Part shown: positions 1 through 19,245 of the stretch, one piece after another
Layout of the letters: each line of letters starts with the position of its first letter
How positions within the stretch are numbered: position 1 is the first letter of the stretch
Source: an uncultured Gammaproteobacteria bacterium
GTDB lineage: Bacteria; Patescibacteriota; Patescibacteriia; Patescibacteriales; UBA12465
Assembly (NCBI GenBank): GCA_964446775.1
Contig: CAYURA010000001.1
Span: 1 to 47,731 of the forward strand
DNA: 47,731 bases
Direction of reading: 5' to 3'
Notes under the pieces: model-generated
Seen by the model: only the letters and a program-made list of their open reading frames with translations
Databases searched by the model: none
Told to the model about the DNA's origin: nothing
Made by a program: the position numbers and the translations under genes

Positions 1-57
1 TCTAGCTGGTACATCTGATTGACACATATTATAACAAAATAATAATCTAATATTAAA

Positions 58-123: not shown

Positions 124-3100
124 TTATAGTGACCAATTATGATAAAACCCCCAATTATCAGTCACTTTAATTTTAATAGTTATTGTTTGAGAACTAGTAT
201 AATAGTGATAAAGCACGTGGGGATCAGAATCATTAGGCCTATTATTTTGATTAACCAAATTCTGTTGACTACCATCACCCCAGTCAATGATTAGATCTCT
301 TAATGGTTGTTGCTCCTTATCAATTGTGGTTGTGAAACTCAATTTGTATATCCCTGGACTAACTGTCAGTGGATTACTTAAAGAACTACCATTAACTTTA
401 ACGTTAGCTATCTTTGGCAAAATGTATTTCCAATATTTACTAAAAGTATCATCATTCTCCGTCTTATGACAATCACTAGTCGTACAATTTCCACCGTTAT
501 ATATAGATTTGTAATAACTGCTTTTATCTGCTGGATCGTCACTGTCATAGCCTCGCTCTGACTTATAGCTATCATTCTCAAATAGATAACCTTCATATGA
601 AGTAAGGAAGATGTTCTTTAAAATATTGTCAGCTTTAAAACTCAAGTCTTTAGTTTTTTCATATAAATATTTTCCGTCCCATAAAGGGATACAAGTTCCA
701 TTAACACTACCACAAGAGTTTTCATTAATAAAAGAATTAACAACGCTTTCTTCTTCGTCAAGGATACAATAAACATTGGGATTTAAGCTACAGTAACCAA
801 TATTTTTACAACCTTCTCCTCTGCACCCATAAGGCCTACCAGCAAAAGCTATCTGATTAATTTGATCAGAGTAGCGATTCCTCAGTTTAATACGTGGACT
901 AGCAAAAATATTATAATTATCTGGAATAGTGGCTGCTCCAAAAGGGATTAATTCGCGATTACGGCCATAAGCAGTGAATTTAAATAAATCTCTCCTAGTG
1001 CACGGATTTGAATTTCCTAAACAAATTGGATCATCACAGGGAATTGACGTAAGTATAGAGCTAGTCTTATAACACCAACCCACATACTGATCATGACACA
1101 GGCCCCTACATATACCATCTTCTTGACAGCAGTCAAGCTGAAGATGGGTTTCACATATTTCACACTTTGCAATACATTCCTCTTTCTGGTAGTCACACTG
1201 ATTACTTGTACCATAATAAGTATTTCCACTTCTAAAGAATAGAGGCGTTTCAAAAAGATATGCGCTGCTCTTACTAACTCGGTTAGCCCAAGCTTGATTA
1301 TTACCAGCCGAATCAACTACCTGAGTAAAACGATTACAAGTTGGATAATATACCTTTTCAGGATCAGAAGAAGAAATAAGGCCTAATTCATCCTCTATAA
1401 TAGTGGGATAATCTTTATCAAAAATTCTCACTGGCGGATTAGCATTCTTGCTCTCATCTAAATTAGTACAAAGAACGAGCTGATCATCCGCACAATTAGA
1501 ATTATAGGGCTTCATGTAAAGCCCATTGTAAGGAGCCCAACCTTCATAATAGGTGATTTCACAAAGAGAGCCCTCTGCGGCTGGAATTATTTTTTTGGTA
1601 ACTATCCGCTTACCTTCATAAGTAAGCATTTTATCAAGCCGAGGGACACACCAAGCACGATTATTTTCAACTTGTATTTGATTAACAATATAATAACCTT
1701 CAGGACAATGTATATTTGGCAAACCATACCAACTACAATCGCCTGTTATGCTTATGCCTGTTGGTCCAGGAAGTGGCCCTGTTTGCCAATCAGGATAACC
1801 ATCAAACGGATGATTGCCATCACCATCATCCCAAAACTTATTAGCCGTCCTCTTTTCTACTAATTCAAAGTTGCCATTAGCTTCAGTACAATAGTTTAGT
1901 GGGAAAGCCCCTTGGTAGCCTATACTAGACCGACCTGACTTAAGACTGGCCGATATCTTATCAACTGGATACCAGAGAAGACAAACATTTTTGTTAGCTG
2001 GATCGTGTTCTAAACAATAGCCAAGCCAACCATCTTGTATCACCTTGCTGTTAACACTACTACAAGAAACAGAATCTTGACTCGGATACAGGCGACATTC
2101 TTTAGCTATATATTTCCCTCCCCCTACATCTAAAACTGGCTCAATATTAATGTCATCAAAATAGACATAACGCTCTTCAGCCCCACTCTCAGTTGAACTC
2201 GCTGAAAGAAAAATAACTATTTTATCAGCATGAATATCACCACTCCCATTAAACTTCATTATCTTTCTTTCCCAGCCCTGGTTAGAACTAAAGACTTCTC
2301 GAGCAATGGGGACTTCATCCTTATAATTATTTCCAATTTTATACCCATAAATCGAAACCTCAGCTTTAACTCCACTGTCTTTAGTGTTAACTAAGAAATT
2401 TAAATAATTTGCCGAGCTTGTGGGAATGGTAATCGGAGAATTAATTGAGTGGGGGACAATCCTGTGTCCTTGCATAACCTTTAAGTAGGCTCTGCCTTCA
2501 GCTGGATAATCTGTAGGGGCATTAGTTGGTGAATTAACAATAGAATCATATTGCAAACTAACATCAAAATTACAATCTTTCCAATCCTTAGTTTTACAAT
2601 ATAGACTAGGGCTGGCTTCTTCAAAATTAAAATGAGCCGTAGTATTTATTCCTACTTCCCCCATTCTTGATAAACTGTATTTATCAAGAACTGAATAACC
2701 AGTTAGTTTGCCTAAATTAGAATTATTTTCTGGAGTGACTATCTCATTATTTGCTTTAATAAAGTTAACACATTCTCCTTTATCATCTAAAACATTACAC
2801 TCACCTACAGAATAACAAACTTTTTCCCCTGCTTCATCATAAGCATAAGTCTTACAATCTAACCAAGAGGCGCAAGTTCGATCAGGTCGGACTTTTAACA
2901 AAACATTAGAGTCACAATTACCATCTGTACAATTTACTGGTTTCTTGCCACTCGTGCTAGTAGCTGCATTATAATAGCCAGTAAGTGGTAGGAGTCCTTC
3001 ACCGCCATTCATTATTCTTTCATTAAGGAGAATGCAACCATTTTTTTGATTAACTAGCCCATTGCACAAGCCTTTATCCTTATTAACCTGCTGCTTAAAT

Positions 3101-6100
3101 TGATAGGCAATAATTGCTTTCTTTAAGACAATTTCATGATTTATATGCGCCCCATAGACAGTCACAGAACTATTATTTCGTGAATGGAAAATATATCGTT
3201 GTGTCGGAGTAGACGATGAAATAGTTAAATTAGGATTGCTAGTTCCCAAATAATTATCATCTTGGAGCACAGAGACGCCTGATGATTCAACCCAAACATC
3301 ATATGCTAATGAAGTTTCTGTAGTGTTGACTGAGAAAATATATAATGAATTTGGTTCTATTCCAACTTCTTGGTAGCTGCCACTGCCAGACCCGATCCAA
3401 GCATTGCTATTATTTTCATAACTAGGATCTATAATTAAATTACTAGAAAAAGAACTAATTGGATCAATATATTCAGAACAGCCAGACTGAACATCTTCAC
3501 AAACAGCCACTGACTCACTAGGTACTGGCACCTGTCTACCTCCACCACCATAACCAAAGGTCTCAAAATATGATACTGGACAATCATAATCATTATTATC
3601 CATTATGCAAGGTCGATTACCAGGACAGTCATCAGCACTAGTACAAATTTTAGTGCCTAATTCATTAGTATCAATTTTACCATTATTATTTATATCGCAT
3701 CTTAAAACTGGGGCCTTATACCAATTCTTACCCGGTGTTTCTGGATCATTACTATTCCTATAGGTACAAAGATTAGTACCTGGTTTTTTGAAATAGCTAA
3801 CCCCACCACCATCAAAATCGTTCCAAGCTTCACAACCATCATCAACATAATCACAAATAATCGAATCGTATTTATTAGGGTTATTGAGCTTATAAACATC
3901 TGACCAATTTAAATTATGAGCCGAATCTACTGCTTGACCTAAAAGAGAACAGCCTAAATCAGCACTATTACACATCTTGGTTTTATCATAAACGGCATAA
4001 ATGAAACGATCTCCCTCCACTTTAATACAGCCTGGCTCATCAGCTTCACAAACCTTGTCATCATCAGCATCTTTCCAAATATTAGCTTTGAAACTATCAT
4101 AATTTGCGGTATCAATCATCTTCTCACAACCGACTGATGAGTTCTGACAAAGTTTAGTAAACTGTCTTAAATAATGAGGAACCTGATTCCTATCAAGGTA
4201 GGCTGAACAACCTAAGTTATAGTCTGAGCCTTGATAGCGATCCAAAATATCGTAATAGCAAATATTTGGCACCTGACTAGTTCCCCTAATTAGATAATAG
4301 CGATCAGTAATTTCAGTTAAGATTAAATTATCTATATAGAAATCATTATCAGCTTTAATAATTAAAGCTTCCTCAGCATTAACTGAATGATCTAACTCAG
4401 CTAAATTAAGCTCAAAGCTTCGCCACTCTTTATCGCCACGAACAACAAAAGTATTACTAACACCAGCCATAAAATATGATGTTGATGATGTTGCCAATTC
4501 ACTAGAGTTCGAGAAAGCAATAGAAACATTAGTATTTGTTGCGGCACTAGCGGTAAACTTTAAAGTATATGATTTACCTGTTTGAACACTATAAGCAACT
4601 TCTTTCTTAATATAAGATGGTGGTGTCGTCGATGCATTAGCCTGATTAATTAAACGATTTAACTGAACAATAGGCGAAGGGTTTAGGTTAGGAACAGGAC
4701 TATTAGCTCCTTTATCATACATCATTGATTGACCATTATTAGAATTGGCAACTGGAGAGTGGAGTGGTTTATCACCGTAACCATCCTCCCAGCCCTCTAG
4801 CCCATAATCAAAACTGTTAGCAAATATTAAACGGGTATTATTTCCTAAACTACCATTATATTCACGGCAGCCATTATCAAGCGCCTGACAACTTGTACTT
4901 TCGCTAGGAATTGCTTGATATAAACAAGCTTGATGATAATCACTCCATTCACCTCCATTCTTACAAACATAACACTGCAACCTAGTTGCATCCCAATGAC
5001 CGTCAACGTCATTGCAGTCATTATTACTAATAATAGTTCGATCAATATTATTTTCACTCAAACGATAACTATAACAATCTTCAGAACAAGTAACAGTATG
5101 AGCTGTTAAACGATATGCTATATCTCCTTCCTTATTATAATATTCTCGACAATCAGGGTTAAACCCTGGATCACTTGGGGTCAGGTTAAAAGAAATGTTA
5201 TTACAAGTACCTGAATCATCATTAGTAGAGAAGGGAGTTCCAGAAGCATTTGTCTTTAAAGTCACTGATTTCAACTGATAGCCACTCTCTTCTGTCCCCA
5301 CCCAGTGATAGAACTCATCGCATTCATTACCTGGCTTAATACATTGTTTAAGTTGACTATAATAGGCCCGAGTTTCCCCTCCGCCAGCCACTTCATCTAA
5401 ATTAGTGAACTCACTACAACCAACAGCTAATGCCCCACAAGACTGACTATTTTTTGGTATCATTTTTTCTGCCTGTGGAGAATAGAAATAGTTATCTCGA
5501 GAAATATAAAGATTATAGCCATCACAATTAGCATCACAATAATCGGTAGTAATAGTCTTAGCTGCCACTGAAAAACCAGTACGTACTTGTGTGTAATGGT
5601 TACAACCGGCTTCATCAATATTACATTGGCGAACATAATTATTACAAACAAGTGGTGCATTTATTTTCAAACGATAATCAGGCTTACTAGAATTAGGATC
5701 CTCATAACATGTATTCCATAAATATTTAGGAATTAACTTTTCATATATTTTAGACGTACCATAAGCTGAAAAACCAGAATCATAGGAATTCATTTCTAGT
5801 TTTAGATTTTTAACCGCAAACTCGGTTGCTCCAGCTGATTCATTATGAGCCGAAATAAGAAAAGCTAACTCTGATAAGGGTTTTTCACTCAAATCCCTAG
5901 TAACACTCAAATGTTGCCAATCACTGCTTGTCCCTACCTGCGCAGCAGCTAGATAATCATCCCCTAGAACAGCCCTTACTTGACTCCCTGTCTTTAAATA
6001 GACGTCAGCACTTAAAGTATAAGTTTCACCAGAGTCAATATTTAAATCAGCGGGAACTAAGGGGGTTATATTATTAGAATAAAGAGAGGTTGTCGAAGCT

Positions 6101-8481
6101 GTAGAACTAGCTAAAATGGCCTTCCCTGTAAAATTATTGTTTAATTCACTAGAGTCAATGATCTCAGCTGTACCAGTCGCTCCTGGAGACCAAACAGTCC
6201 AATAATTATTGATCCTACCCGATGTAGACTTATCACCTATCTCATCAGCGGCAAAATCAGCTCCCATAATTAAATTAACCTTAGATCCTTGCTGTACCCT
6301 CATAAGTTCATGACAGCCCTCAGAGTCAGCTGAACAATTTCCTAATTTATCATTAAAGTAGGGGTTAAAGAAAGGATTAGCAGACCAAGTTATTTGACCA
6401 GTGCTTGTACTATAGCTACCATGGGTAGAATAGCGCTGACAGCCAACCGAATCAGCACTACAACCGCTATAATCAAGAGTATTTTCTAAATAGGAAACCT
6501 TCTTGCCATCAGCATCATAGAAGGAGCTACAAGTATTATTAATTGGTTCACAAGTAGGAGAGTTAAAATTCCAAGTGCTTTGCTCAGATAGACAATAGCC
6601 ATAAGTTTCACAGCTGCCATCAGCATTCTCATTAATACAAGTTTTCTCATCTCCGCAATAGTCTTCTGCTCTAGTAATTGATATTTCATCACGCACAGCC
6701 TTATCTTCATAATAACTAGGAATAACATTAATATTTAAAAGCTGTGAACTAAAACCCTGAGCAGAACAATAGTTAAGTGGCGCTTTTAGCACCCAATCTG
6801 GGTCAACTAAACCTCGACACCAACCTTGATCAGCTACACTAAAGCCAGAACTATAGGAATTATGTTCATCATGAGCGCTAAAGCAAGATACCAAGTCCAT
6901 TAGGGTAGCTTTTTTATTATTAGAAGCTGCTATCTCCCAAGTTAGAGGAACTATACGATATTTTCTCAGAATTTGAATATTTCTTAAATTATAGGTACCC
7001 TCTGAAAAGTCAGTTGTAAATTGCCAATCAGCATGCAAACTACCTTGCTTCATTGCCTCAGCTACAGTTAATTTATCAATTGCTCCTTGCATAAAACGAT
7101 CATCAATTACGCATTCAGTTGGTCCTGGATTTTTTCGATCCCGACAAGCATTTAAAGATGCTAGAATATCGTAATCGCCTTTAATACTAAAATCAGGCTC
7201 AATAATCTTAGCTAAACTCTCTACAACCTTTCCTTCGCCATAGCGTATTTGAGGATCATAATCAGGATTTTTAAAGTCATTAGCATTAGAAGTACTTTTA
7301 ATAACATCCTTACCTAAATTACTCATTTGTGTATTAAAGAAACTAATTGCTAATTGGTTTAAGAAGACATTAGCTGCATCAATTAAGGCATCACCAGTAA
7401 ATTGTCCCATATTATTAATATACCCTTGCTCAGTCATCTCAAGTTTTCTTTGAGGATCTTTTGGTGTTCCGATCATGTTCCCAGCAATATCTCTTAAATC
7501 TAAATACCCATCATCAGCAATTAATTTCTTGTCAAATTCTTTTATAGCTTTCTCTTCATTCTGTTTTTGACCAACACTCATTTGATAGAAAATACCCAAA
7601 TCATTTGAATTTGGATTAAAAATATTTGAAAACTTTTGTAAAAAATGAGGGTCAGTATAATATTCATGTTGGCGTTTATATTCATCTTCCCAATTCTTCA
7701 CCATCTCTGAAGCTACGCAATTAGGTGCTTGTGGCCTTTGATTGTCTACTAAATTTAAAGCAATTCTTAACTTAAAATCTATAGATGAAGGTTCACAAAG
7801 CAATGGCGCTAAAGGAGATTCAGCTACTTGAACTGATTGAGTCACTCCATCTCCACCAGTCATAACCCCACTACATTGCATTAATTCATCATAGCAAGAT
7901 TTTTCAATATCAAGGGGGAGCCAAATATCCAAACATTCATTAAAGCAAGCTCCATATAATATGAAATCTGGTATTTTATCACATTTAGAAAAACACGCGT
8001 CTTGTTCATCGGCCTTCCTTTCAGGACAAGCATCATAAGCCTTCTTACACTGCTCGTTCTGTTTAGTCCCCTTTCCATCAGTTTTAAAATCAGCATTATT
8101 CCAATTTTTAACAGCTGATTCTAAAAAATCACCAGCGGCTTCATCACCTATTTTACCTAAATAGGTGCCCCAATCTTCAGTCACAAATAATGGTTTTTGG
8201 CCCTTACCACCAGAGCCAATCCATTTAGCGCTATCATAAGCAATTTTATTCATCGCCTTTCTAATTGCAGTTTGAAGCGCAGCTGCACCACCTTTTTCAT
8301 AGGCTTTTTTTGCAAAATCAGTAATTGGTTTTAGAATATTGGCAATCCCTTGATTAACGTCTTGTGCATAAACAACTCGTGGTATAAGTAAAGAAAAAGA
8401 AAATGAAAAAACTAAAATAAGTAGGAATAGAAAGGCTCGATATCTTAAGCGAGCTTGATTAAATTTAGAGCGCTTAGGCAT
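124..8481 (-). CDS. Giant (2785 aa) secreted cysteine-rich modular surface protein; no named family recognised for the whole protein
   Basis: Uninterrupted 8.36-kb ORF. Basic N-terminus plus hydrophobic helix ending VVYA|QD (signal peptide or anchor). About 106 Cys by hand count, clustered in linker blocks. Long Cys-free beta-sandwich-like blocks. C-terminal PKD-like domain. TAA stop. Confidence 0.85.
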   Translation of the reverse strand: MPKRSKFNQARLRYRAFLFLLILVFSFSFSLLIPRVVYAQDVNQGIANILKPITDFAKKAYEKGGAAALQTAIRKAMNKIAYDSAKWIGSGGKGQKPLFVTEDWGTYLGKIGDEAAGDFLESAVKNWNNADFKTDGKGTKQNEQCKKAYDACPERKADEQDACFSKCDKIPDFILYGACFNECLDIWLPLDIEKSCYDELMQCSGVMTGGDGVTQSVQVAESPLAPLLCEPSSIDFKLRIALNLVDNQRPQAPNCVASEMVKNWEDEYKRQHEYYTDPHFLQKFSNIFNPNSNDLGIFYQMSVGQKQNEEKAIKEFDKKLIADDGYLDLRDIAGNMIGTPKDPQRKLEMTEQGYINNMGQFTGDALIDAANVFLNQLAISFFNTQMSNLGKDVIKSTSNANDFKNPDYDPQIRYGEGKVVESLAKIIEPDFSIKGDYDILASLNACRDRKNPGPTECVIDDRFMQGAIDKLTVAEAMKQGSLHADWQFTTDFSEGTYNLRNIQILRKYRIVPLTWEIAASNNKKATLMDLVSCFSAHDEHNSYSSGFSVADQGWCRGLVDPDWVLKAPLNYCSAQGFSSQLLNINVIPSYYEDKAVRDEISITRAEDYCGDEKTCINENADGSCETYGYCLSEQSTWNFNSPTCEPINNTCSSFYDADGKKVSYLENTLDYSGCSADSVGCQRYSTHGSYSTSTGQITWSANPFFNPYFNDKLGNCSADSEGCHELMRVQQGSKVNLIMGADFAADEIGDKSTSGRINNYWTVWSPGATGTAEIIDSSELNNNFTGKAILASSTASTTSLYSNNITPLVPADLNIDSGETYTLSADVYLKTGSQVRAVLGDDYLAAAQVGTSSDWQHLSVTRDLSEKPLSELAFLISAHNESAGATEFAVKNLKLEMNSYDSGFSAYGTSKIYEKLIPKYLWNTCYEDPNSSKPDYRLKINAPLVCNNYVRQCNIDEAGCNHYTQVRTGFSVAAKTITTDYCDANCDGYNLYISRDNYFYSPQAEKMIPKNSQSCGALAVGCSEFTNLDEVAGGGETRAYYSQLKQCIKPGNECDEFYHWVGTEESGYQLKSVTLKTNASGTPFSTNDDSGTCNNISFNLTPSDPGFNPDCREYYNKEGDIAYRLTAHTVTCSEDCYSYRLSENNIDRTIISNNDCNDVDGHWDATRLQCYVCKNGGEWSDYHQACLYQAIPSESTSCQALDNGCREYNGSLGNNTRLIFANSFDYGLEGWEDGYGDKPLHSPVANSNNGQSMMYDKGANSPVPNLNPSPIVQLNRLINQANASTTPPSYIKKEVAYSVQTGKSYTLKFTASAATNTNVSIAFSNSSELATSSTSYFMAGVSNTFVVRGDKEWRSFELNLAELDHSVNAEEALIIKADNDFYIDNLILTEITDRYYLIRGTSQVPNICYYDILDRYQGSDYNLGCSAYLDRNQVPHYLRQFTKLCQNSSVGCEKMIDTANYDSFKANIWKDADDDKVCEADEPGCIKVEGDRFIYAVYDKTKMCNSADLGCSLLGQAVDSAHNLNWSDVYKLNNPNKYDSIICDYVDDGCEAWNDFDGGGVSYFKKPGTNLCTYRNSNDPETPGKNWYKAPVLRCDINNNGKIDTNELGTKICTSADDCPGNRPCIMDNNDYDCPVSYFETFGYGGGGRQVPVPSESVAVCEDVQSGCSEYIDPISSFSSNLIIDPSYENNSNAWIGSGSGSYQEVGIEPNSLYIFSVNTTETSLAYDVWVESSGVSVLQDDNYLGTSNPNLTISSSTPTQRYIFHSRNNSSVTVYGAHINHEIVLKKAIIAYQFKQQVNKDKGLCNGLVNQKNGCILLNERIMNGGEGLLPLTGYYNAATSTSGKKPVNCTDGNCDSNVLLKVRPDRTCASWLDCKTYAYDEAGEKVCYSVGECNVLDDKGECVNFIKANNEIVTPENNSNLGKLTGYSVLDKYSLSRMGEVGINTTAHFNFEEASPSLYCKTKDWKDCNFDVSLQYDSIVNSPTNAPTDYPAEGRAYLKVMQGHRIVPHSINSPITIPTSSANYLNFLVNTKDSGVKAEVSIYGYKIGNNYKDEVPIAREVFSSNQGWERKIMKFNGSGDIHADKIVIFLSASSTESGAEERYVYFDDINIEPVLDVGGGKYIAKECRLYPSQDSVSCSSVNSKVIQDGWLGYCLEHDPANKNVCLLWYPVDKISASLKSGRSSIGYQGAFPLNYCTEANGNFELVEKRTANKFWDDGDGNHPFDGYPDWQTGPLPGPTGISITGDCSWYGLPNIHCPEGYYIVNQIQVENNRAWCVPRLDKMLTYEGKRIVTKKIIPAAEGSLCEITYYEGWAPYNGLYMKPYNSNCADDQLVLCTNLDESKNANPPVRIFDKDYPTIIEDELGLISSSDPEKVYYPTCNRFTQVVDSAGNNQAWANRVSKSSAYLFETPLFFRSGNTYYGTSNQCDYQKEECIAKCEICETHLQLDCCQEDGICRGLCHDQYVGWCYKTSSILTSIPCDDPICLGNSNPCTRRDLFKFTAYGRNRELIPFGAATIPDNYNIFASPRIKLRNRYSDQINQIAFAGRPYGCRGEGCKNIGYCSLNPNVYCILDEEESVVNSFINENSCGSVNGTCIPLWDGKYLYEKTKDLSFKADNILKNIFLTSYEGYLFENDSYKSERGYDSDDPADKSSYYKSIYNGGNCTTSDCHKTENDDTFSKYWKYILPKIANVKVNGSSLSNPLTVSPGIYKLSFTTTIDKEQQPLRDLIIDWGDGSQQNLVNQNNRPNDSDPHVLYHYYTSSQTITIKIKVTDNWGFYHNWSL
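127..405 (-). other. PKD-like Ig-fold domain at the C-terminus of the giant protein (aa ~2693-2785)
   Basis: VSPGIYKLSFTTT...IIDWGDGSQQ...PHVLYHYY...ITIKIKVTDNWG fits the PKD pattern (WDFGDGS ... H.Y ... Y.V.L.V.D..G). The DWGDGS codons were checked at 268..285. Boundaries are approximate. Confidence 0.6.
2128..2649 (-). other. Cys-free block 4 of the giant protein (aa ~1945-2118), predicted beta-sandwich / CBM-like module
   Basis: No Cys between C1970 and C2129. Strand-like alternating pattern (KAEVSIYGYKIG, WERKIMKFNG, KIVIFLSASS, RYVYFDDINIEPV) resembles jelly-roll carbohydrate-binding modules. Boundaries are approximate. Confidence 0.4.
3112..3441 (-). other. Cys-free block 3 of the giant protein (aa ~1681-1790), predicted beta-sandwich module
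   Basis: No Cys between C1668 and C1806. SYENNSNAWIGSGSGSYQEV, SLYIFSVNTTE, YDVWVESSG, QRYIFHSRNNSSVTVYGA. Boundaries are approximate. Confidence 0.35.
4309..4833 (-). other. Cys-free block 2 of the giant protein (aa ~1217-1391), predicted beta-sandwich / CBM-like module
   Basis: No Cys between C1205 and C1408. FANSFDYGLEGWEDG, GKSYTLKFTASAATNTNVSIAF, KEWRSFELNL, DNDFYIDNLILTE (typical CBM-type F..G...W start and F.iDn..l end). Boundaries are approximate. Confidence 0.45.
5791..6291 (-). other. Cys-free block 1 of the giant protein (aa ~731-897), predicted beta-sandwich / CBM-like module
   Basis: No Cys between C723 and C925. NNYWTVWSPG, GETYTLSADVYLKTGSQVRAVLG, DWQHLSVT, ATEFAVKNLKLE. Boundaries are approximate. 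Confidence 0.45.
8365..8481 (-). other. Signal peptide / N-terminal membrane anchor of the giant protein (aa 1-39)
   Basis: MPKRSKFNQARLRYR (basic) + AFLFLLILVFSFSFSLLIP (hydrophobic) + RVVYA|QD (A-x-A-like cleavage context). Confidence 0.7.
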
Positions 8482-8510: not shown

Positions 8511-9203
8511 TTACTCTTCAGATGGATCTATTGATAATTCTTTTGGTAACTGTGATTCATTTAAACCCTCTCTATAAATCACCAACAGTTCTTCGTCACT
8601 TAAATTATTTATTAAATTGGTATCGATTCCACTAGTAATCAGTAGTGCTCTAATATTTTGAACATTAGCCTCACCACTAAGCAGAGTCATCATTACTTCC
8701 TCTAATTCATCGGGCGTATCTGAAGACAGCTCAGAAATTTCTGGAACAAGAACAATGCTATCTTGAGGTTTCTTTACTATTTCAATCTCATTGCTACAAT
8801 CTTGTCCCTCAGGACATAGTGGATCCGTCCCAGTTCTTACCTCATCATAATCACTAATGCCATCGCCATCAGTATCAACTAAATAAGGAGAAGTATGGTA
8901 AATGTTCATTTCTTCGGCATCAGTTAAGCCATCGCCATCAGTATCTAGATTGCCATCAGCATGCAAACTCGCTAATTGCTGAAACTCATCAATATGGCTA
9001 GCAAAATCTTTAGGTTTTTTATCTCCATAATCAAAGACACTAACTAAACGATAATTAATTTGCCAGAACCATAAGAATAGAATTGAAATACTAAGGAAAA
9101 CCATGAAAATAAAAGCATTCTTCTGTTTTTTAGGTAAACTTTTCAAGAAAGAAGAACGAGGCTCTTTTTGCCTAGACTCATTATCATTATTATTTAGAGG
9201 CAT
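8511..9203 (-). CDS. Single-pass membrane protein with two bacterial thrombospondin type-3-like Ca-binding repeats and an acidic tail
   Basis: Basic N-terminus then TM helix AFIFMVFLSISILFLWFW. DTDGDGLTDAEE and DTDGDGISDYDEVRTGTDP (D-x-D-x-D-G-x-x-D-x-x-E repeats, aa 83-132, nt 8808..8957). Ends 29 nt upstream of the giant gene on the same strand. Confidence 0.75.
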   Translation of the reverse strand: MPLNNNDNESRQKEPRSSFLKSLPKKQKNAFIFMVFLSISILFLWFWQINYRLVSVFDYGDKKPKDFASHIDEFQQLASLHADGNLDTDGDGLTDAEEMNIYHTSPYLVDTDGDGISDYDEVRTGTDPLCPEGQDCSNEIEIVKKPQDSIVLVPEISELSSDTPDELEEVMMTLLSGEANVQNIRALLITSGIDTNLINNLSDEELLVIYREGLNESQLPKELSIDPSEE

Positions 9204-9249
9204 AAACTAAAATATATAGACGAAAAAAATAAATTCATCATTGTCTAAA

Positions 9250-10104
9250 TTATAACACAAAATCACTAAGCGCCGCAACTAAATGCAACCAATTGATTAA
9301 TGATAAATTTTCTGCTCTTGATTTTAAATCTATTCCAGCTGTTTTAAAAGATTGATCAATCAAACTCGCTTCACATTTAAGACCAGCTATCAAATTATTT
9401 TTCAACATTTTTCTCTTAGCACTAAATCCAATCCGAGCAAATCTAAAAAATGTTTTTGCTTGCTCTAAGTCTTCTTTATTGGGACTACTCTTTTCATTAA
9501 CAAAACGCAAAATAGCGCTATCTACTTTAGGGGCTGGCCAAAAATCAGAGGCTTTAACAGTTCTGATAATCTCCACTTGACCGTAATAGGCGAGGGAAAG
9601 AGAGAGTAAAGACATATCTGGTTCACGCCTAAGGCAACGCTCGGCTACTTCTTTTTGTAGCATTAATACTAAAGACTTTGGTGGTTTAATACTAGAAAGG
9701 AAAGTCCTTAAAAAAATAGAGCTAATATTATAAGGCAGATTGGCCACCACTTGATAGCTTTCATTATTTTTAAAATAATCACTAGGATTAAGTTTCAATA
9801 TATCTTGATTAACTATTTCTACATTAGTAACATTTTGCGAATCTATTGCTAAACTTAAAATACTAGCTAAAGTATCGTCTAACTCTACCGCTACCACTCG
9901 CTTCGCTTTCAAAGCTAAACGAGCAGTTAAAAAACCTAAGCCAGGACCCACCTCTAAGATTGAGTCTTCCTTATTTAAATTAGCTGCTTTAATAATCGCT
10001 TCATAGATACCAGAGTTAATAAGGAAATTTTGCCCTTTGCTACGAGCTGGGGAGATATCATACAAGCGACATAATTCTTTAGTTTGTTTAGCAATATCTA
10101 GCAT
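9250..10104 (-). CDS. rsmA: 16S rRNA (adenine1518/1519-N6)-dimethyltransferase
   Basis: KGQNFL, SAM-binding EVGPGLGFLT and VANLPYNISS motifs; 284 aa, typical length. Confidence 0.9.
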   Translation of the reverse strand: MLDIAKQTKELCRLYDISPARSKGQNFLINSGIYEAIIKAANLNKEDSILEVGPGLGFLTARLALKAKRVVAVELDDTLASILSLAIDSQNVTNVEIVNQDILKLNPSDYFKNNESYQVVANLPYNISSIFLRTFLSSIKPPKSLVLMLQKEVAERCLRREPDMSLLSLSLAYYGQVEIIRTVKASDFWPAPKVDSAILRFVNEKSSPNKEDLEQAKTFFRFARIGFSAKRKMLKNNLIAGLKCEASLIDQSFKTAGIDLKSRAENLSLINWLHLVAALSDFVL

Positions 10105-12531: not shown

Positions 12532-12542
12532 AAAATAATAGA

Positions 12543-13304
12543 TTATAGTTCCAAGCCGATTGGCGCATGATCCGAACCCTGCACTTGATCAAGGATATAG
12601 GCTTTTTTAAGCTGATTTTGTAATTTAATTGATACTACAAAGTAGTCAATCCGCCAGCCAATATTCCTTGTTTTAGCAGCCGTCCTAAAACTCCACCAGC
12701 TATACTGTACTCTATCACTATTAATTAGACGGAAGCTATCTAAATAACCATGTGATAATAGTTTACTAAACCACGTTCTTTCTTCTGGAGTAAATCCAGC
12801 ATTGCCTTCATTTTCTACAGGACGAGCTAAGTCAATTTCATTATGAGCGACGTTAAAATCACCAGTAATAATAACTGGTTTATTTTTTTCTAACTTCAAA
12901 ATATATTTTAATAAAGCATCATTAAATGATTGCTTATACCCGAGTCGCGATAATTCTTGATTAGCATTGGGGAAATAGACATTTAAAAGATAATATTCTT
13001 TTAATTCCAAGGTTTGTATTCTTCCCTCAATATCATATTGCTCAAGAGCTAAACCATTGCTTATATTAATAATGTCCACTTCTTCTTTAATTAAAATAGC
13101 GGTACCACTATAACCAGGTCTTTTAGCTCCATGCCAATAATTACGATAGCCTGGAATATTAATTTTTAAATCTTCTCTTTTCTGATCATCTATTTTAATC
13201 TCTTGTAAGCAAACAATATCTGCTTTTTGCGTAATTAGAAAGTCGAAAAAATTTTTCCTTAAAACTGCTCTTATCCCATTAATATTCCAAGAAATTATTT
13301 TCAT
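12543..13304 (-). CDS. xth: Exodeoxyribonuclease III (AP endonuclease)
   Basis: MKIISWNINGIRA, CLQEIK, TGDFNVAHNEIDL, GSDHAPI motifs; 253 aa. Confidence 0.93.
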   Translation of the reverse strand: MKIISWNINGIRAVLRKNFFDFLITQKADIVCLQEIKIDDQKREDLKINIPGYRNYWHGAKRPGYSGTAILIKEEVDIINISNGLALEQYDIEGRIQTLELKEYYLLNVYFPNANQELSRLGYKQSFNDALLKYILKLEKNKPVIITGDFNVAHNEIDLARPVENEGNAGFTPEERTWFSKLLSHGYLDSFRLINSDRVQYSWWSFRTAAKTRNIGWRIDYFVVSIKLQNQLKKAYILDQVQGSDHAPIGLEL

Positions 13305-13340
13305 AAAGCTTATCTCAATTTATAGTCGTATTAGTATTAA

Positions 13341-13369
13341 TAGCCACAAAAAACTGAATATGTTATAAT
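13341..13369 (+). promoter_or_regulatory. Candidate sigma70-type promoter for the dsbA-like/por unit
   Basis: TAGCCA - 17 nt - TATAAT with an upstream TG (tgtTATAAT), about 60 nt before the ATG at 13430. The AT-rich background makes chance matches likely. Confidence 0.35.
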
Positions 13370-13392
13370 ATATTTAATTAAGTAATAAACTA

Positions 13393-13421
13393 AGTATAAG
13401 ATAAATATTATCTTTTTTCAA
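13393..13421 (-). promoter_or_regulatory. Candidate divergent promoter for the xth-leuS-rsmA string
   Basis: Minus strand TTGAAA - 17 nt - TATACT, about 90 nt upstream of the xth start (13304). Confidence 0.3.
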
Positions 13422-13429
13422 CTAACCAT

Positions 13430-14185
13430 ATGAGTTTAGAAGAACGGGTAAACTATTTAAAATTAAAAGAAAAACATAAACGAAAATTGAAACCCTGGTA
13501 TAAAAAATGGTGGGGCTTAATTTTAATTGCGGTCTTTGTTTTGATTATTTCTGGCTTGATCGCTTCTGGCATTTATCTTGTTAAAGAGGTTAAAAGAATT
13601 CAAGCAGGAAACCTGGATATTGAAACTCAAAAAGAACTAGATAGAATTACTCAAGCAATTGATGGGACTAGTGAACATTTCAGTTTAGGGCCGATCAACG
13701 CGCCAATAAAAATTATGGCGTTTCTTGATTATTCTTGTCCTCACTGCAATGAAGCAATGGCAACTATACATAATTTAAACAAAAAATATCCCACTGAAGT
13801 TCGTATCAGTATAAGAGACTATCCAGCCCTAAGGATGGCTTCAATTAATCAGGCATTGGCCGCACACTGTGCTGGCGAACAAAATAATTTCTGGCAAATG
13901 AGTGATAGTTTATTCGAAAACCAAGATATTCTAATTAATTTAAACGAAAGTAATATTGATTTAGAATTAAAAAATATTGCTAAGGGACTAAAACTAGATG
14001 AAGCTCAATTTGAGGATTGCTTAAAGAACAAAAAATATCTCTATCGCTTAAATGATAATTTCGCAGATGCAGAGTTTTTAGATGTTAAGGGAACCCCTAC
14101 TTGGTTTATCAATCGTTATAAAATAACAGGCTATTATCCTGAGGAGAACTTTGTTAATCTAATTGAAGGCCTTTTAGCTCTATAG
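13430..14185 (+). CDS. Membrane-anchored DsbA-family thiol:disulfide oxidoreductase
   Basis: N-terminal TM helix WWGLILIAVFVLIISGLIASGIYLV. Thioredoxin-fold active site DYSCPHCNEA. DsbA-like length (251 aa). Stop lies 1 nt before porG. Confidence 0.85.
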   Translation: MSLEERVNYLKLKEKHKRKLKPWYKKWWGLILIAVFVLIISGLIASGIYLVKEVKRIQAGNLDIETQKELDRITQAIDGTSEHFSLGPINAPIKIMAFLDYSCPHCNEAMATIHNLNKKYPTEVRISIRDYPALRMASINQALAAHCAGEQNNFWQMSDSLFENQDILINLNESNIDLELKNIAKGLKLDEAQFEDCLKNKKYLYRLNDNFADAEFLDVKGTPTWFINRYKITGYYPEENFVNLIEGLLAL

Positions 14186-14186
14186 T

Positions 14187-14762
14187 ATGATTAGCTTTCG
14201 TATTCATGGTCGAGGTGGACAAGGAGCAATTGCTGCTTCTGAGTTAATTGCCTTGGCTGCTTTTCACCAAGGTTTCTATGCTCAATCATTGCCTTTCTTT
14301 GGAGTTGAGAGAAGCGGAGCTCCAGTTCAAGCTTATGTCCGCATCAGTGACAGAGCAATTATTACTCACTCACAAGTCAAGGAGCCTGATTATTTGATTA
14401 TTCAGGATGATACTTTAATTGCTGTTAAAGATGTTTACTTAGGACTGAATCCAAAAACTAAAATATTAATCAATAGTCAAGAAACCAGTGAAATTTTAAG
14501 AAAAAAAATCCGTTTGAAAATAAAAAATAACGACATTCTGACGGTTAATGCAAGTCAAATTGCTCTAAATATTATGAGAAGAAATATTATTAACACTTCT
14601 CTTCTCGGTGCTTTTTCAGCTCATTATAATTTACTTAGTAAAGAAAATTGTCAACAAGCAATTATAGATAAATTTAGCAAAAAAGGCCGTGGCACTGTTA
14701 AACTAAATCAAAAAATATTTCTTTTCACTTATGATCTCTGCCAAAAAAATGCCAATAACTAA
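14187..14762 (+). CDS. porG: Pyruvate/2-oxoacid:ferredoxin oxidoreductase, gamma subunit
   Basis: FRIHGRGGQGAIAASELIALAAF is the typical gamma-subunit N-terminus; 191 aa; canonical position before delta. Confidence 0.88.
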   Translation: MISFRIHGRGGQGAIAASELIALAAFHQGFYAQSLPFFGVERSGAPVQAYVRISDRAIITHSQVKEPDYLIIQDDTLIAVKDVYLGLNPKTKILINSQETSEILRKKIRLKIKNNDILTVNASQIALNIMRRNIINTSLLGAFSAHYNLLSKENCQQAIIDKFSKKGRGTVKLNQKIFLFTYDLCQKNANN

Positions 14763-15015: not shown

Positions 15016-15021
15016 AATATT

Positions 15022-16158: not shown

Positions 16159-16180
16159 ATCTAGCTTAAGCCAAAAGTTT

Positions 16181-17185
16181 ATGAAAAAAAGCCATTGGAA
16201 GAAACAATTTACCATATTCATTGCTTTATTCTTGTTTTCTTTTATATTCTCTTTTAATTTAGCTCAGGGTGAGTTATTGCCTAGTGTCAAAAATCCAATT
16301 GTATTTCAAGCCCAAACTACCATTCCTGGTGTTTTTACAAAAGGTGAAAAAATTCCAATAAAAAAACAAGATACCAGTTTTATTGCAGATATGATTAAGA
16401 ATTTCTATAGTTACGGTATTGGCATCGCTGGCATATTGGCCGCTATTATGTTGATGGCTGGTGGACTTGTTTGGCTAACTTCAGCTGGCAGCAGTGACAA
16501 AATTTCCCAGGCTAAGAATCTCATGTCTGGCAGTATTGTTGGCCTAGCATTACTCTTTAGTTCCTGGATAATGCTCAGAACTATTAATCCAGCTTTAGTA
16601 GATTTCAGGATAACAAGTATTCATACGATCGAAAAAGTTACAAGGGGTTGTTGTGAATATAATAATAAAGCTGAAAGCATGGCTACTAAGGATTGTAAAT
16701 CACAAAATGGAAAATTTTTTGCACCTGATGACCAAGGTTTTTATAGTCCATATAAAGGGAAATGCTCATTAAATAAAGTTTCTTGTAATATTGGCACTAG
16801 TCCGTATACTGAGAATGTTTATCTTTGTTTTGAATCTGATTTAAAAGTAGCACCTGGAAATAACCTTGGACAAGAACTTAAACCTGGAAGGTGCGCTAAT
16901 TATAAGGAATGTGATAATGTTTTTACTAGTTGTCTTGATGTTGAAGATGGTAAACCTTGCAAAGACGCAAAAGGCAGACTAGCAGTGGTAAATAGTTATT
17001 GCTTCAACATGATGTGTTATTTAGGGCATGGGAAAGAAGGCGAGCCTTGCGGTCAAAAAGGTGGCAGCTGTATCGCCACTTCTAAGTGTAAAGATTTGGG
17101 GTTGCCAGGTGACTATGATAACGATTCCGGTGGTCGGATATGTGAAAATAGTAGCTTAAAGTGTTGTTACAAAGTTAACAAGTAA
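16181..17185 (+). CDS. Exported protein: signal peptide + VirB2/TrbC-like (T4SS-pilin-like) TM hairpin + 18-Cys C-terminal domain
   Basis: Signal peptide ...FSFNLAQ|G. Hairpin YGIGIAGILAAIMLMAGGLVWLTSAGSSDKISQAKNLMSGSIVGLALLFSSWIML (two TM helices joined by a short polar loop). All 18 Cys lie in aa 156-334. Inserted between porA and porB with 22-nt and 5-nt gaps. Confidence 0.7.
   Translation: MKKSHWKKQFTIFIALFLFSFIFSFNLAQGELLPSVKNPIVFQAQTTIPGVFTKGEKIPIKKQDTSFIADMIKNFYSYGIGIAGILAAIMLMAGGLVWLTSAGSSDKISQAKNLMSGSIVGLALLFSSWIMLRTINPALVDFRITSIHTIEKVTRGCCEYNNKAESMATKDCKSQNGKFFAPDDQGFYSPYKGKCSLNKVSCNIGTSPYTENVYLCFESDLKVAPGNNLGQELKPGRCANYKECDNVFTSCLDVEDGKPCKDAKGRLAVVNSYCFNMMCYLGHGKEGEPCGQKGGSCIATSKCKDLGLPGDYDNDSGGRICENSSLKCCYKVNK
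16376..16636 (+). repeat. Paralogous pilin-hairpin module, copy 1 (aa 66-152 of the 334-aa protein)
   Basis: Aligns without gaps to 18435..18695. Roughly 55-60 percent amino-acid identity by hand, including the identical run GIAGILAAIMLMAGG. The DNA is also visibly similar (ggcat.gctggcat.tt.gccgc.attatg.t.atggctggtgg). Confidence 0.8.
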
Positions 17186-17190
17186 ATTAA

Positions 17191-18042
17191 ATGTCTGTGA
17201 GCTACCAGAGCAATCTCACTCCAGGCCATAATGCTTGTAGTGGTTGTGGACAATTAAGCGCAGTTCAAGCAGTTATGCGAGGACTAACAAAAGATACTAT
17301 CCTGGTAAGTTCAACTGGTTGTTTAGAGGTAACTACCACTGCTCACCCTCAAAGTGCTTGGAATTTGGCCTGGTTCCATTCTCTATTTGAAAATGCTGCT
17401 CCAGTAGCTAGTGGCATCAAAGCGATGTTAAATAAAAAAAAGAAAAAAACTAAAGTTGTGGTCCAAGCTGGAGATGGAGCTACTTTTGACATTGGACTAG
17501 GTTTACTTAGTGGCCTTTGGGAAAGAAATGATGAGGTGCTATATATTTGTTATGACACTGAAGTCTATTCCAACACTGGCATTCAGGCTTCTGGAGCCAC
17601 TCCTTTTGGTGCTAGCACTAAAACTAATCCGGGTAGCAATAAACAAATGAAGAAAGATATGATAGCAATCGCTTTAGCTCATAAATTAAATTATGTCGCT
17701 CAAAGTAGCGCTGGTTTTCCTGATGATATTACTAGAAAGATTAAAAAAGCCTTAAGTGCTACTGGCCCAAGTTACATCCAAATATTAGCTCCATGTGTTC
17801 CTGGCTGGGGTATACAAACTAATGAAAGCATTAAAGCAGCTAAGCTAGCAGTTCAAAGTGGGCTATATCCTCTACTTGAATACGAAAATGGAAAGTTGAT
17901 TAGCTCTAACATTAAAACTAGTGAAAGTAAATTAGTACTACAATATCTCCGACTTCAAAGAAGATTTAAACATCTAACAGATGACGAAGTAAAAGAAATA
18001 ATTAGATTAGCTGAAATAAATAAGAAAAAATATAAAATATGA
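17191..18042 (+). CDS. porB: Pyruvate:ferredoxin oxidoreductase, beta subunit (TPP-binding)
   Basis: GHNACSGCGQ, TPP motif QAGDGATFDIGLGLLSG, YDTEVYSNTG; 283 aa. The TGA stop overlaps the next ATG (ATGA). Confidence 0.9.
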   Translation: MSVSYQSNLTPGHNACSGCGQLSAVQAVMRGLTKDTILVSSTGCLEVTTTAHPQSAWNLAWFHSLFENAAPVASGIKAMLNKKKKKTKVVVQAGDGATFDIGLGLLSGLWERNDEVLYICYDTEVYSNTGIQASGATPFGASTKTNPGSNKQMKKDMIAIALAHKLNYVAQSSAGFPDDITRKIKKALSATGPSYIQILAPCVPGWGIQTNESIKAAKLAVQSGLYPLLEYENGKLISSNIKTSESKLVLQYLRLQRRFKHLTDDEVKEIIRLAEINKKKYKI

Positions 18043-19196
18043 CTCAAAATTTAAATAATGTGGTAAAAATAATTATCCTGAGTTCTCTAACTTTCGTTTT
18101 AACTTTAATATCAACTAATGATGTGCAGGCAAAAGCTTACACTTGCACTTGGCGCATAAAAACAACCTCAATGCAGGGTGCTGGTGTGCTAGATAAAGGA
18201 TGCTATTCGAATGAACTTTTTTCAAAATATGAAAATTGTGACCCAGAAACAAAACCACCTGATGAGGGAACCAATAGTGCCATAGAAAAAAAAATTGTAT
18301 GTTGTTGCCCTGATCCTGGTTATAATAAGCCCGAACCTAAAGCTGATATAATTATCCCTAGCTTATCCATTAAAATTAATACCATTGAACTAAGTCAAGA
18401 AATTTTTTGTCAGGATGAAGATTGCTATTATCCCTGGATAGCCGAATATATTAATGGAATATATAAATATGGATTTGGCATAGCTGGCATCTTAGCCGCC
18501 ATTATGCTCATGGCTGGTGGTGTCATTTGGTTAACTTCCGCTGGCGATGCTTCTAAAATAGGTCAAGCAAAGAACTTGATCACTGGAAGCGTAATTGGCT
18601 TGATTGTTCTTAGCACTAGTTATATTATTTTAGAAACAATAAATCCAGAATTAACCAATCTAAAACATATTACTATTAAAGGGATAGAAAAAATTGCGCC
18701 AAGTGAAGTAAAACGTCCTAGTGATGAAGCTGAGAATCCATATCAAGAGGGCTGCGATGCTTCTAGAAATGGAGATTATGAGATTTGTAAACAATATGCT
18801 AACGAAACACCTAAAGATATGTTAAAGATTTCTGGCACTTCTCAATACGCTAAAGAAGAAGTGGTAAATAAGTATCTATTAGCCATGGAATGTGTTAAAG
18901 ATAAAAATGATGGTAAAAAATTATTTACCGTAGGAGTTGCTTGGCGCTCACCAAAAAAACAATTAGAGCTATTTGAGAGTTTAGGTCACCCCAAAGCAGC
19001 CTATCCGTGTTGTTCTAATCATGGAAAAGGCACTGCCTTAGATTTAAATAGAACAGACGGAGTTAAGATGACCTGGGGATATAATGAGAGCTCAGGATTA
19101 TTAGAATGCATGAATGCTCAAGGTTTATACGCTAAATTAAAAGGCCAGAATGGAGACCCTGACGAACCATGGCATTGGTCTCTTAGTGGAAGATAA
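18039..19196 (+). CDS. Exported protein: signal peptide + 8-Cys N-domain + VirB2/TrbC-like TM hairpin + M15 (VanY/D-Ala-D-Ala carboxypeptidase-like) peptidase domain
   Basis: Signal peptide ...NDVQA|KA. Hairpin YGFGIAGILAAIMLMAGGVIWLTSAGDASKIGQAKNLITGSVIGLIVLSTSYIIL. M15 motifs AWRSPKKQLELF, CCSNHGKGTALD (S-x-H-x-x-G-x-A-x-D) and DEPWHW (E-x-x-H). Confidence 0.75.
   Translation: MTQNLNNVVKIIILSSLTFVLTLISTNDVQAKAYTCTWRIKTTSMQGAGVLDKGCYSNELFSKYENCDPETKPPDEGTNSAIEKKIVCCCPDPGYNKPEPKADIIIPSLSIKINTIELSQEIFCQDEDCYYPWIAEYINGIYKYGFGIAGILAAIMLMAGGVIWLTSAGDASKIGQAKNLITGSVIGLIVLSTSYIILETINPELTNLKHITIKGIEKIAPSEVKRPSDEAENPYQEGCDASRNGDYEICKQYANETPKDMLKISGTSQYAKEEVVNKYLLAMECVKDKNDGKKLFTVGVAWRSPKKQLELFESLGHPKAAYPCCSNHGKGTALDLNRTDGVKMTWGYNESSGLLECMNAQGLYAKLKGQNGDPDEPWHWSLSGR
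18435..18695 (+). repeat. Paralogous pilin-hairpin module, copy 2 (aa 133-219 of the 385-aa protein)
   Basis: See copy 1 at 16376..16636. Confidence 0.8.
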
Positions 19197-19213
19197 AAGA
19201 ATGAAACAAGTAT

Positions 19214-19245
19214 AAAAAAGCTATTCAATTGAATAGCTTTTATAC
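19214..19245. terminator. Bidirectional rho-independent terminator between convergent units
   Basis: Perfect palindrome AAAAGCTATTC-AATT-GAATAGCTTTT (11-bp stem, 4-nt loop), flanked by an A-run on one side and a T-run on the other. Lies between the stop at 19196 (+) and the stop at 19281 (-). Confidence 0.65.

Follow-up and report, generated by a model that had tools for sequence, protein, structure and literature searches.

One question raised by the 47,731-nucleotide (nt) contig CAYURA010000001.1 (assembly GCA_964446775.1), the whole of which is referred to here as the window, is what role is played by its longest open reading frame (ORF), which encodes a cysteine-rich protein of 2785 amino acids (aa) with a predicted export signal, hereafter the giant protein. 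A preliminary description of this DNA, made from the sequence alone, had proposed adhesion to a host cell or to a polymer. Adhesion remains the best reading of the sequence, the structure models and the gene context, and we hold with moderate confidence that the giant is a host- or polymer-docking surface protein of a Falkowbacteria-type ultra-small bacterium, acting most likely with a neighbouring apparatus that resembles a type IV secretion system (T4SS). The parts of this proposal differ in strength: it is very probable that the giant is a disulfide-stabilised surface protein of the lectin type, and a true functional link to the T4SS is tentatively suggested.

The giant protein family and its cysteine-rich segments

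The ORF listing places the giant gene on the reverse strand as the largest in the window, as in the preliminary description, and the mature protein is computed to be ~305 kDa with a pI of 4.8. The sole hydrophobic segment spans aa 12-39 and is followed by the residues A39 and Q40, which are invariant or nearly so across the family described below; together these features fit a cleaved Sec signal. The giant protein has no C-terminal anchor or hydrophobic tail, and the only LPxTG-like string is internal (LPLTG, aa 1831), which agrees with the earlier view of a signal-peptide protein lacking a C-terminal sorting signal. Cysteine (Cys) accounts for exactly 106 residues (3.81%, compared to 0.98% across the window's other 27 ORFs), where about 106 had been counted before, and the six Cys-free stretches that had been listed (aa 256-445, 724-924, 1206-1407, 1669-1805, 1971-2128 and 2672-2785) match to the residue. 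Three further Cys-free stretches are found at aa 1-144, 458-532 and 2598-2665. The gene and its segments are listed below, where CBM stands for carbohydrate-binding module, AF2 for AlphaFold2 and pLDDT for the predicted local distance difference test score.

124..8481 (-): giant gene, 2785 aa, ATG start; secreted Cys-rich protein, from the ORF listing
8365..8481 (-): aa 1-39, Sec-type signal peptide with basic n-region, hydrophobic core and VYA/Q motif (cleavage predicted between A and Q)
8050..8364 (-): aa 40-144, N-terminal region, conserved and predicted to be helical; motif ALNKIAYDTA..GSGG.GQKPLFVT
7717..8049 (-): aa 145-255, V1, a variable cluster of 10 Cys; many insertions and deletions (indels) across the family, absent in homologue P0118, strain-variable
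7147..7716 (-): aa 256-445, Cys-free block 1, for which AF2 predicts alpha helices with low confidence; strain-variable patch at aa 343-350
6313..7146 (-): aa 446-723, Cys-rich core segment 1, in which each of the 15 Cys is at least 97% conserved, with three C-x6-C hairpins at its end
5710..6312 (-): aa 724-924, CBM4/9-like beta sandwich 1; AF2 pLDDT ~82
4867..5709 (-): aa 925-1205, Cys-rich core segment 2 with 20 Cys; partly modelled, pLDDT 50-83
4261..4866 (-): aa 1206-1407, CBM4/9-like beta sandwich 2, assigned from CBM_4_9 matches of up to 38 bits at the equivalent position of homologues
3478..4260 (-): aa 1408-1668, Cys-rich core segment 3 with 18 Cys and five C-x6-C hairpins
3067..3477 (-): aa 1669-1805, beta sandwich 3; all-beta in AF2, core pLDDT ~76, with jelly-roll and cleaved-adhesin matches in Foldseek
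2572..3066 (-): aa 1806-1970, Cys-rich core segment 4 with 11 Cys
2098..2571 (-): aa 1971-2128, CBM_4_9_1-like beta sandwich 4; AF2 pLDDT ~74, Pfam CBM_4_9_1 match in homologues at this position
469..2097 (-): aa 2129-2671, beta-rich C-terminal region that contains Cys, with inserts that vary across the family and islands that are conserved
127..468 (-): aa 2672-2785, terminal Ig/PKD-like beta sandwich bearing the conserved motif IDWGDG..PH.FYHYY..DNWG; all-beta in AF2, pLDDT ~74

The giant gene is real, not an artefact. A homologue search returned 236 proteins, the best 120 of which are nearly all 2570-2950 aa long, 36-58% identical to the giant and collinear with it over 71-100% of the query; all of these 120 are annotated as "hypothetical protein" and belong to metagenome-assembled genomes (MAGs) of Patescibacteria or Ca. 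Falkowbacteria. More than 115 full-length homologues are collinear with the giant, 115 of them, at 2550-3000 aa, aligning end to end, and 11 strain variants (2782-2789 aa, in the same 90% cluster) come from independent assemblies. With a profile of aa 1-723, an exhaustive search of 1.84 billion representative sequences gave 1502 matches at E<=1e-3, 1087 of them at E<=1e-30; the best 150 of the 1502 are giants or giant fragments, and a scan of one genome per species found relatives of the gene in 323 genomes. Thus, where the preliminary description saw no recognisable whole-protein family, a large unnamed one exists (1502 representatives), for which a literature search found no publication; the homologue and synteny searches that it had proposed recovered both the family and a conserved locus. 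A chimeric mis-assembly, which it had considered, is contradicted by the independent variants of the same length and by the end-to-end homologues. Furthermore, hhalign comparisons among 14 segments of the protein found no internal repeat homology (best probability 15%), which makes the giant a fixed mosaic rather than a tandem-repeat adhesin and removes concern over collapsed repeats. Mis-assembly or repeat collapse can be ruled out on these grounds together with the same-length variants, and a tandem-repeat adhesin of the RTX, Bap or Ig-repeat type is likewise ruled out by the lack of internal repeat homology and the constant length of the family (~2570-2950 aa).

In an alignment of 116 full-length members, Cys is the best-conserved residue type (0.84); 80 of the 106 Cys positions are at least 90% conserved, and the Cys count is even in 95 of the 116 proteins. 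The 16 poorly conserved Cys of the window protein, also an even number, are found in lineage-specific inserts, notably aa 2429-2494, a cluster present in only ~18% of family members. Much of the conserved Cys complement is regularly spaced: the giant contains 20 C-x6-C pairs, compared to 6.6 +/- 2.4 when residues are shuffled within the Cys-containing segments, and none of 5000 shuffles reaches 20. These pairs often take the form C-x5-G-C-x-x-[YF], 14 of the 20 are at least 97% conserved, and one lies immediately before each sandwich block, with a conserved Cys after each. When Cys is set aside, identity is still 0.44-0.53 in the segments at aa 446-723, 925-1205, 1408-1668 and 1806-1970, versus 0.36-0.40 in the Cys-free blocks. 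The Cys-rich stretches had been described as linkers between domains, but they are the most conserved part of the protein, and that picture is therefore inverted, in that a disulfide-rich scaffold appears to bear more variable sandwiches. From the alignment, the sandwiches look like variable add-ons on a conserved core.

Models from AF2, computed with an alignment of 29 sequences, cover aa 1-1200 (mean pLDDT 53, predicted template-modelling score 0.30) and aa 1586-2785 (mean pLDDT 64, predicted template-modelling score 0.54), with confident parts at aa 450-565, 731-900 (~82), 1050-1190, 1696-1785 (~76), 1971-2128 (~74) and 2690-2785 (~74). The four blocks previously proposed as jelly-roll or CBM-type sandwiches (aa 724-924, 1206-1407, 1669-1805 and 1971-2128) are each supported by one or more of AF2, Foldseek and Pfam matches in homologues, block 1206-1407 by the last of these. 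Blocks 724-924, 1669-1805 and 1971-2128 are predicted as folded beta structure, but block 256-445 belongs to a region (aa 42-445) that AF2 predicts to be helical, at low confidence. Compared to PDB structures, sandwich 1 resembles CBM4-2, CBM11, CBM16 and CBM61 modules at TM-scores of 0.55-0.64, including the CBM4-2 structures 4bj0, 3jxs and 2y6j (E ~4e-6, TM-score ~0.62). In sequence, the Pfam model CBM_4_9 (PF02018) scores 15.3 bits over aa 806-861 of the window protein, short of its gathering threshold of 25.9 bits, but it passes that threshold in several homologues, scoring 29-38 bits at the positions that correspond to blocks 2 and 3; among 17 members, CBM_4_9 is matched in 15 at E<=0.1 (best 2e-9) and CBM_4_9_1 in three. 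A search of PDB sequences with the full-length family profile gave only a marginal match, to the laminarinase CBM4 1gui (E=0.089), which falls to sandwich 2 (aa 1206-1407).

The model of aa 1586-2785 finds gingipain cleaved-adhesin domains, CBM22 and those CBM-like portions of Cry1Ac, Vip3A and CDTb/Ib that bind receptors, and the best matches among viral models are phage CBM-cenC, tail-fibre, minor-tail and host-specificity proteins. The giant thus shares a beta-jelly-roll fold with CBM4/9 modules and phage receptor-binding proteins; unlike CBM4/9 enzymes and phage proteins, it has neither a glycoside hydrolase nor a phage tail module. Foldseek also matches reelin repeats and Elapor1, in which jelly-roll sandwiches alternate with small disulfide-knotted or Cys-rich modules, a likeness that is structural analogy only, with low TM-scores, a root-mean-square deviation of at least 30 Å over multi-domain alignments and ~10% identity. 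Consistent with the absence of a catalytic motif noted in the preliminary description, no catalytic domain was found in the giant in Pfam, NCBIfam, PHROGs or PDB sequence searches. No EGF, known Cys-repeat or Myxococcus-repeat family is matched in Pfam or NCBIfam, and aa 40-723 have no tblastn match in plasmid and phage collections and none in PHROGs.

The last block had been said to look like a PKD domain. A conserved, PKD-like WGDG motif and a predicted beta sandwich are present, but no hidden Markov model for PKD (PF00801/PF18911) matches any of 17 family C-termini at E<=10, so that of the domains expected from such searches CBM_4_9 and CBM_4_9_1 are recovered in homologues and PKD is unmatched; a C-terminal profile likewise found nothing meaningful among PDB sequences. 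The only NCBIfam match is a weak one of 14.8 bits between the terminal domain and the FnIII-type PamR model. PamR is the FnIII-like anchor of the newly described Pam pilus found in the candidate phyla radiation (CPR) (bioRxiv 10.64898/2026.03.03.709456), and the match is a resemblance in fold class only, not membership.

Strain-level variation in the giant gene

Compared to the near-clonal strain L085, with which 16.7 kb can be aligned, the window differs at 105 columns. Of these, 103 lie inside the giant gene and 97 within window nt 1-2500, which hold the last 2.4 kb of the gene, while the flanks carry only 2 single-nucleotide polymorphisms in 8.2 kb. The distribution along the gene, with the ratio of non-synonymous to synonymous polymorphism given as pN/pS, is as follows.

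475..2244 (-): aa 2080-2669, strain-level hypervariable zone, hottest at aa 2218-2340
Codons 1-2079: 0 synonymous and 5 non-synonymous differences, 0 indels
Codons 2080-2669: 10 synonymous and 44 non-synonymous differences, 3 in-frame indels; pN/pS ~1.1
Codons 2218-2340 (part of 2080-2669): 5 synonymous and 27 non-synonymous differences, 2 of the 3 indels (after aa 2217 and 2333); pN/pS ~1.5
Codons 2670-2785: 0 synonymous and 0 non-synonymous differences, 0 indels

At aa 343-350, too, non-synonymous changes are tightly clustered, and the nearby codons carry no synonymous ones. Among the 11 strain variants, variable columns are concentrated at aa 100-200, 300-400, 1700-1800, 2200-2300, 2400-2500 and 2600-2700, and these hot spots coincide with the regions that carry inserts or vary at the level of the family. 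The pattern is as expected of diversifying or frequency-dependent selection on a surface, or of localised allele exchange.

One known source of such variation in CPR and DPANN genomes is the diversity-generating retroelement (DGR), and the targets of these elements are, like the giant, large surface proteins with a localised hypervariable region at the C-terminal end. The variation in the giant differs from that of DGR targets in spanning ~1.8 kb and including indels, compared to ~100 bp for a DGR variable region. When the variable region was compared by blastn (word size 7) with the window and with the 98%-identical strain L084, nothing beyond chance matches of <=25 nt came up, and the 47.7 kb encode no DGR reverse transcriptase, the sole match resembling a reverse transcriptase being a 133-aa RNase H. 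Because there is no template repeat in the window or L084, a DGR is ruled out as the cause of the variation.

The membrane partner and the T4SS-like gene cluster

The window stops 123 nt past the stop codon of the giant gene, and the genes downstream were read from related loci. In the consensus of 77 species-level loci, the genes pilin–PFORβ–pilin–PFORα–PFORγ–DsbA are divergent from Exo_endo_phos–LeuRS–KsgA–TSP3–giant, and the giant is followed by genes for a small transmembrane protein (~215 aa), a polytopic protein (~860-1100 aa, 7-9 transmembrane segments), a cytoplasmic protein (~325-400 aa) and a protein of ~440-514 aa, and then by PrgI (VirB3), a TraC-like gene and VirB4. The small transmembrane and polytopic, VirB6-like genes occur within 10 kb in 44 of the 47 loci that have at least 9 kb of downstream sequence; the gap between the giant and the T4SS side is <=300 nt in 26 of 51 loci, and PrgI, the TraC-like gene and VirB4 are found within 10 kb downstream in at least 17 loci. 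In L084, the T4SS-like cluster lies 2.8 kb past the window edge, and positions 11017-20819 of that locus, past the giant, contain a 154-aa ORF, GltX on the other strand, a 207-aa small transmembrane protein, a 1098-aa polytopic protein, proteins of 337 and 514 aa, PrgI and a TraC-like gene. The 337-aa and 514-aa proteins, both cytoplasmic, have no family assignment. The distant members P0260 and P0168 keep the order partner–giant–small transmembrane–polytopic, and even at ~31-36% protein identity the giant gene still adjoins the small transmembrane and VirB6-like genes, at gaps of 18-30 nt.

The gene on the other side of the giant is still more closely coupled to it, and is listed here with the other window features that bear on secretion.

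8511..9203 (-): TSP3 partner, 230 aa, single-pass membrane protein with two TSP3 calcium-binding repeats; transmembrane segment at aa 27-45
13430..14185 (+): DsbA-like oxidoreductase, membrane-anchored, CPHC active site; Pfam Thioredoxin_4/DSBA, conserved in 60 related loci
16181..17185 (+): Cys-rich (5.4%, 18 Cys) T4SS_pilin (VirB2-like) protein, conserved in 50 loci
18039..19196 (+): second Cys-rich (3.6%, 14 Cys) T4SS_pilin protein, with a weak VanY-like C-terminal match

The TSP3 partner lies 29 nt upstream of the giant gene in the window and scores 62.1 bits for its two repeats with Pfam TSP3_bac, well past the threshold of 25 bits. A TSP3 gene is directly upstream of the giant in 73 loci, with a gap of <=60 nt in 58 of 59 (median 20) and frequent overlaps, and the arrangement is retained in distant members. 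Extended -10 motifs of the TGnTATAAT type occur at 9240-9260 (-), upstream of the TSP3 gene, and at 28-56 (-), past the giant stop codon. A scan for promoter and terminator consensus sequences showed no enrichment (48, compared to 38.8 +/- 7.5 in shuffles), and the motifs are therefore no more than hints of a TSP3-giant transcription unit.

Farther upstream in the window are KsgA, LeuRS and an Exo_endo_phos nuclease, with DsbA and the PFOR and pilin genes divergent from these. The CPHC DsbA is likely the catalyst of disulfides in exported Cys-rich proteins; no DsbB or VKOR partner for it was seen within the window. Its presence implies that disulfides are formed outside the cytoplasm in what is presumed to be an anaerobic fermenter. 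The two T4SS_pilin genes are interleaved with the genes for PFOR alpha, beta and gamma, an odd order that is kept in ~50 related loci, and the second pilin protein (18039-19196) also has a weak match to a Mycoplasma pilin-like family of integrative and conjugative elements. In the most divergent loci, L059, L064 and L071, where T4SS genes are not downstream, upstream ORFs (~145-1455) encode pilin homologues with 24 Cys in ~370-420 aa, and in L064 and L071 a second TSP3-like secreted protein is found nearby.

Elsewhere in the window, a 503-aa protein with an N-terminal hydrophobic segment and no Pfam match is encoded between murJ and rpoC at 25513-27024 (-), and a protein with LysM repeats and Peptidase_M23 is encoded at 46006-47349 (+), ~38 kb from the giant gene. 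LysM and Peptidase_M23 are among the additional domains reported on VirB1 homologues of Patescibacteria T4SS (PMC12102498). Many species-representative records that carry the locus (L005, L011, L013 and others) bear one of the titles uncultured Gammaproteobacteria bacterium, Bacillota bacterium or Clostridia bacterium, evidently placeholder names or the result of mis-binned MAGs.

Possible roles of the giant protein

Patescibacteria carry chromosomal, MPF-FATA-like T4SS with VirB2-like pilins, mostly without a relaxase and often near ksgA, for which no PrgB-like adhesin was detected (PMC12102498), and in Southlakia the T4SS is essential for epibiotic growth (PMC10633639). Adhesins of Gram-positive T4SS, such as PrgB of pCF10, are thought to make or stabilise cell-cell contact, and the giant is like PrgB in being a large surface protein, predicted to be exported by Sec, that is encoded with a T4SS of the MPF-FATA type. 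Unlike PrgB, it has no C-terminal LPXTG and no PrgB adhesin domain in Pfam searches, is disulfide-rich and is about twice as large.

A docking protein of this type would be exported through Sec and cleaved after the conserved Ala39, the sequence features of which are present, and would then fold oxidatively, forming ~45-53 disulfides by way of the membrane-anchored CPHC DsbA encoded ~5 kb away. The Cys-rich segments, with their pattern of C-x6-C hairpins, would be arranged as a rigid core, from which the four CBM-like sandwiches, each being bracketed by conserved Cys, would probably project along with the terminal Ig/PKD-like domain. Retention at the membrane would probably depend on the single-pass, calcium-binding TSP3 protein, as the giant has no anchor of its own. 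The CBM-like domains and aa 2080-2669 may bind surface glycans of a host cell or polymer, with the variable patches setting or diversifying binding specificity, and docking would place the VirB6-like/VirB3/VirB4 machine and the VirB2-like pilins against the target, a step suggested by gene order.

Several points weigh against this proposal. CBM folds serve non-glycan ligands as well, and adhesins seldom keep their length and all of their domains over the long term as the giant does, which could equally mean that it is a structural part of a machine. The structure models are mediocre (mean pLDDT 53 and 64), with the N-terminal 445 residues at low confidence, and the VirB6 identity of the polytopic protein is weak, a TrbL match being found in 1 of 16 members at E=0.002. 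The T4SS link is suggested by gene order alone. In 20 of 51 loci the giant is separated from the T4SS genes by unrelated genes (GltX, AspRS, an MFS transporter), and three divergent loci have no T4SS genes downstream of the giant. Furthermore, the whole region is syntenic, LeuRS, KsgA and PFOR included, and adjacency could thus partly reflect a low rate of rearrangement.

The last of these points also favour a somewhat unlikely alternative, in which the giant is a general surface protein for glycan binding or matrix anchoring that works independently of the T4SS, tethering the cell to biofilm polysaccharide or particles or capturing polymer, and owes its position beside T4SS genes to inherited gene order. 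The CBM-like domains and the lack of an enzyme domain would suit such a binder, as would the synteny of the entire neighbourhood, housekeeping genes too, the genes inserted in 20 of the 51 loci and the three loci without downstream T4SS genes. However, adjacency to the small transmembrane and VirB6-like genes has been held even among the distant members at ~31-36% identity, and gaps of 3-30 nt in many loci suggest co-transcription. Strain hypervariability also fits a variable living partner better than a bulk polymer.

Another reading, rather improbable, is that the giant supplies the extracellular subunit that the Patescibacteria T4SS is missing and that would contact the host. A VirB5-like N-terminal helical domain would then dock on the VirB6-like platform or cap the VirB2-like pilus, the multi-lectin body would recognise the host envelope, and the patches of aa 2080-2669 would be a determinant of host range. 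Decidedly improbable is that the giant is itself a structural component of the T4SS-like machine and more than an accessory adhesin, for instance a VirB5-like protein of the pilus tip or stalk, with its N-terminal helical domain sitting on VirB6 and its remainder forming a wall-spanning or distal extension. The conservation of the architecture over its full length, with the Cys-rich core most conserved, is consistent with a machine component, as are the adjoining VirB6-like gene and the nearby VirB2-like pilins. The giant resembles VirB5/DUF4141 proteins (TraI-position) in being secreted, in its predicted helical N-terminal domain and in the position of its gene beside VirB6, and DUF4141 (PF13605) is weakly matched at aa 30-71 in 2 of 17 homologues, the window protein having no match. 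Genes for DUF4141 proteins are found beside traJ and near traG in gene lists of Bacteroides conjugative transposons, where we take traJ to be VirB6 and traG to be VirB4. Moreover, no VirB5, VirB8 or adhesin has been identified for the Patescibacteria T4SS (PMC12102498). Against these points, the best DUF4141 match is below threshold (23.7 versus 30 bits), covers ~40 residues and overlaps the signal peptide, the N-terminal model is of low confidence, and the giant has 2500 residues beyond the ~220 aa of VirB5. The search of PDB sequences also matched no T4SS structure, and in many genomes the giant gene is apart from the T4SS genes.

The size of the giant, its acidity (pI 4.8), predicted secretion and disulfide stabilisation, and its conserved length could also suit an envelope coat or S-layer-like protein that gives the cell surface its rigidity, a role that we consider highly improbable. 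Large Cys-rich exoproteins with strain variation were described in Ca. Peribacter riflensis by Anantharaman et al. 2016 (PMC4736985), and such CPR exoproteins have been proposed to confer rigidity (PMC4736985). The Peribacter proteins share with the giant a signal peptide, a length of >1000 aa, several percent Cys, the absence of annotation, a proposed role in attachment and variation among strains. They are set apart, by description and not by sequence comparison, as a 14-gene cluster with weak Myxococcus-repeat, FG-GAP or pappalysin similarity, whereas the giant family is single-copy with a fixed architecture, CBM4/9-like sandwiches, a TSP3 partner and a T4SS neighbourhood. The coat role is opposed by the localised strain hypervariability and lectin folds, which indicate ligand recognition, and by the lack of an SLH or other S-layer domain in Pfam searches. 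S-layer proteins, moreover, tend to be smaller and poor in Cys. Barely credible is delivery of the giant to the host as a toxin or pore-forming effector, since the Foldseek matches to Cry1Ac, Vip3A and the binary-toxin components CDTb and Ib that might suggest one have TM-scores of <=0.2 on multi-domain alignments or are limited to CBM-like receptor-binding domains, Pfam and NCBIfam searches find no pore-forming or enzymatic toxin domain, and the protein ends in a conserved Ig-like domain rather than in a polymorphic toxin tip.

Giant Cys-rich exoproteins are a known class in the CPR, and adhesins with multiple CBMs are familiar; undescribed so far are this family of giants and its conserved C-x6-C core, its coupling to a TSP3 partner, its position near T4SS genes and its localised hypervariability among strains. 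Patescibacteria are host-dependent, their T4SS-like machine is essential for epibiotic growth in the single genetically tractable species, and a published survey found no adhesin. A giant protein with a coupled membrane partner beside T4SS genes is thus a testable candidate for host contact in one large lineage, and its localised strain variation is a possible sequence marker to correlate with host range in metagenomes. The C-x6-C-rich core represents an uncharacterised disulfide fold in organisms that are usually deemed anaerobic fermenters, and even if the T4SS link fails, the family indicates that the "linkers" of such giants can be the conserved core.

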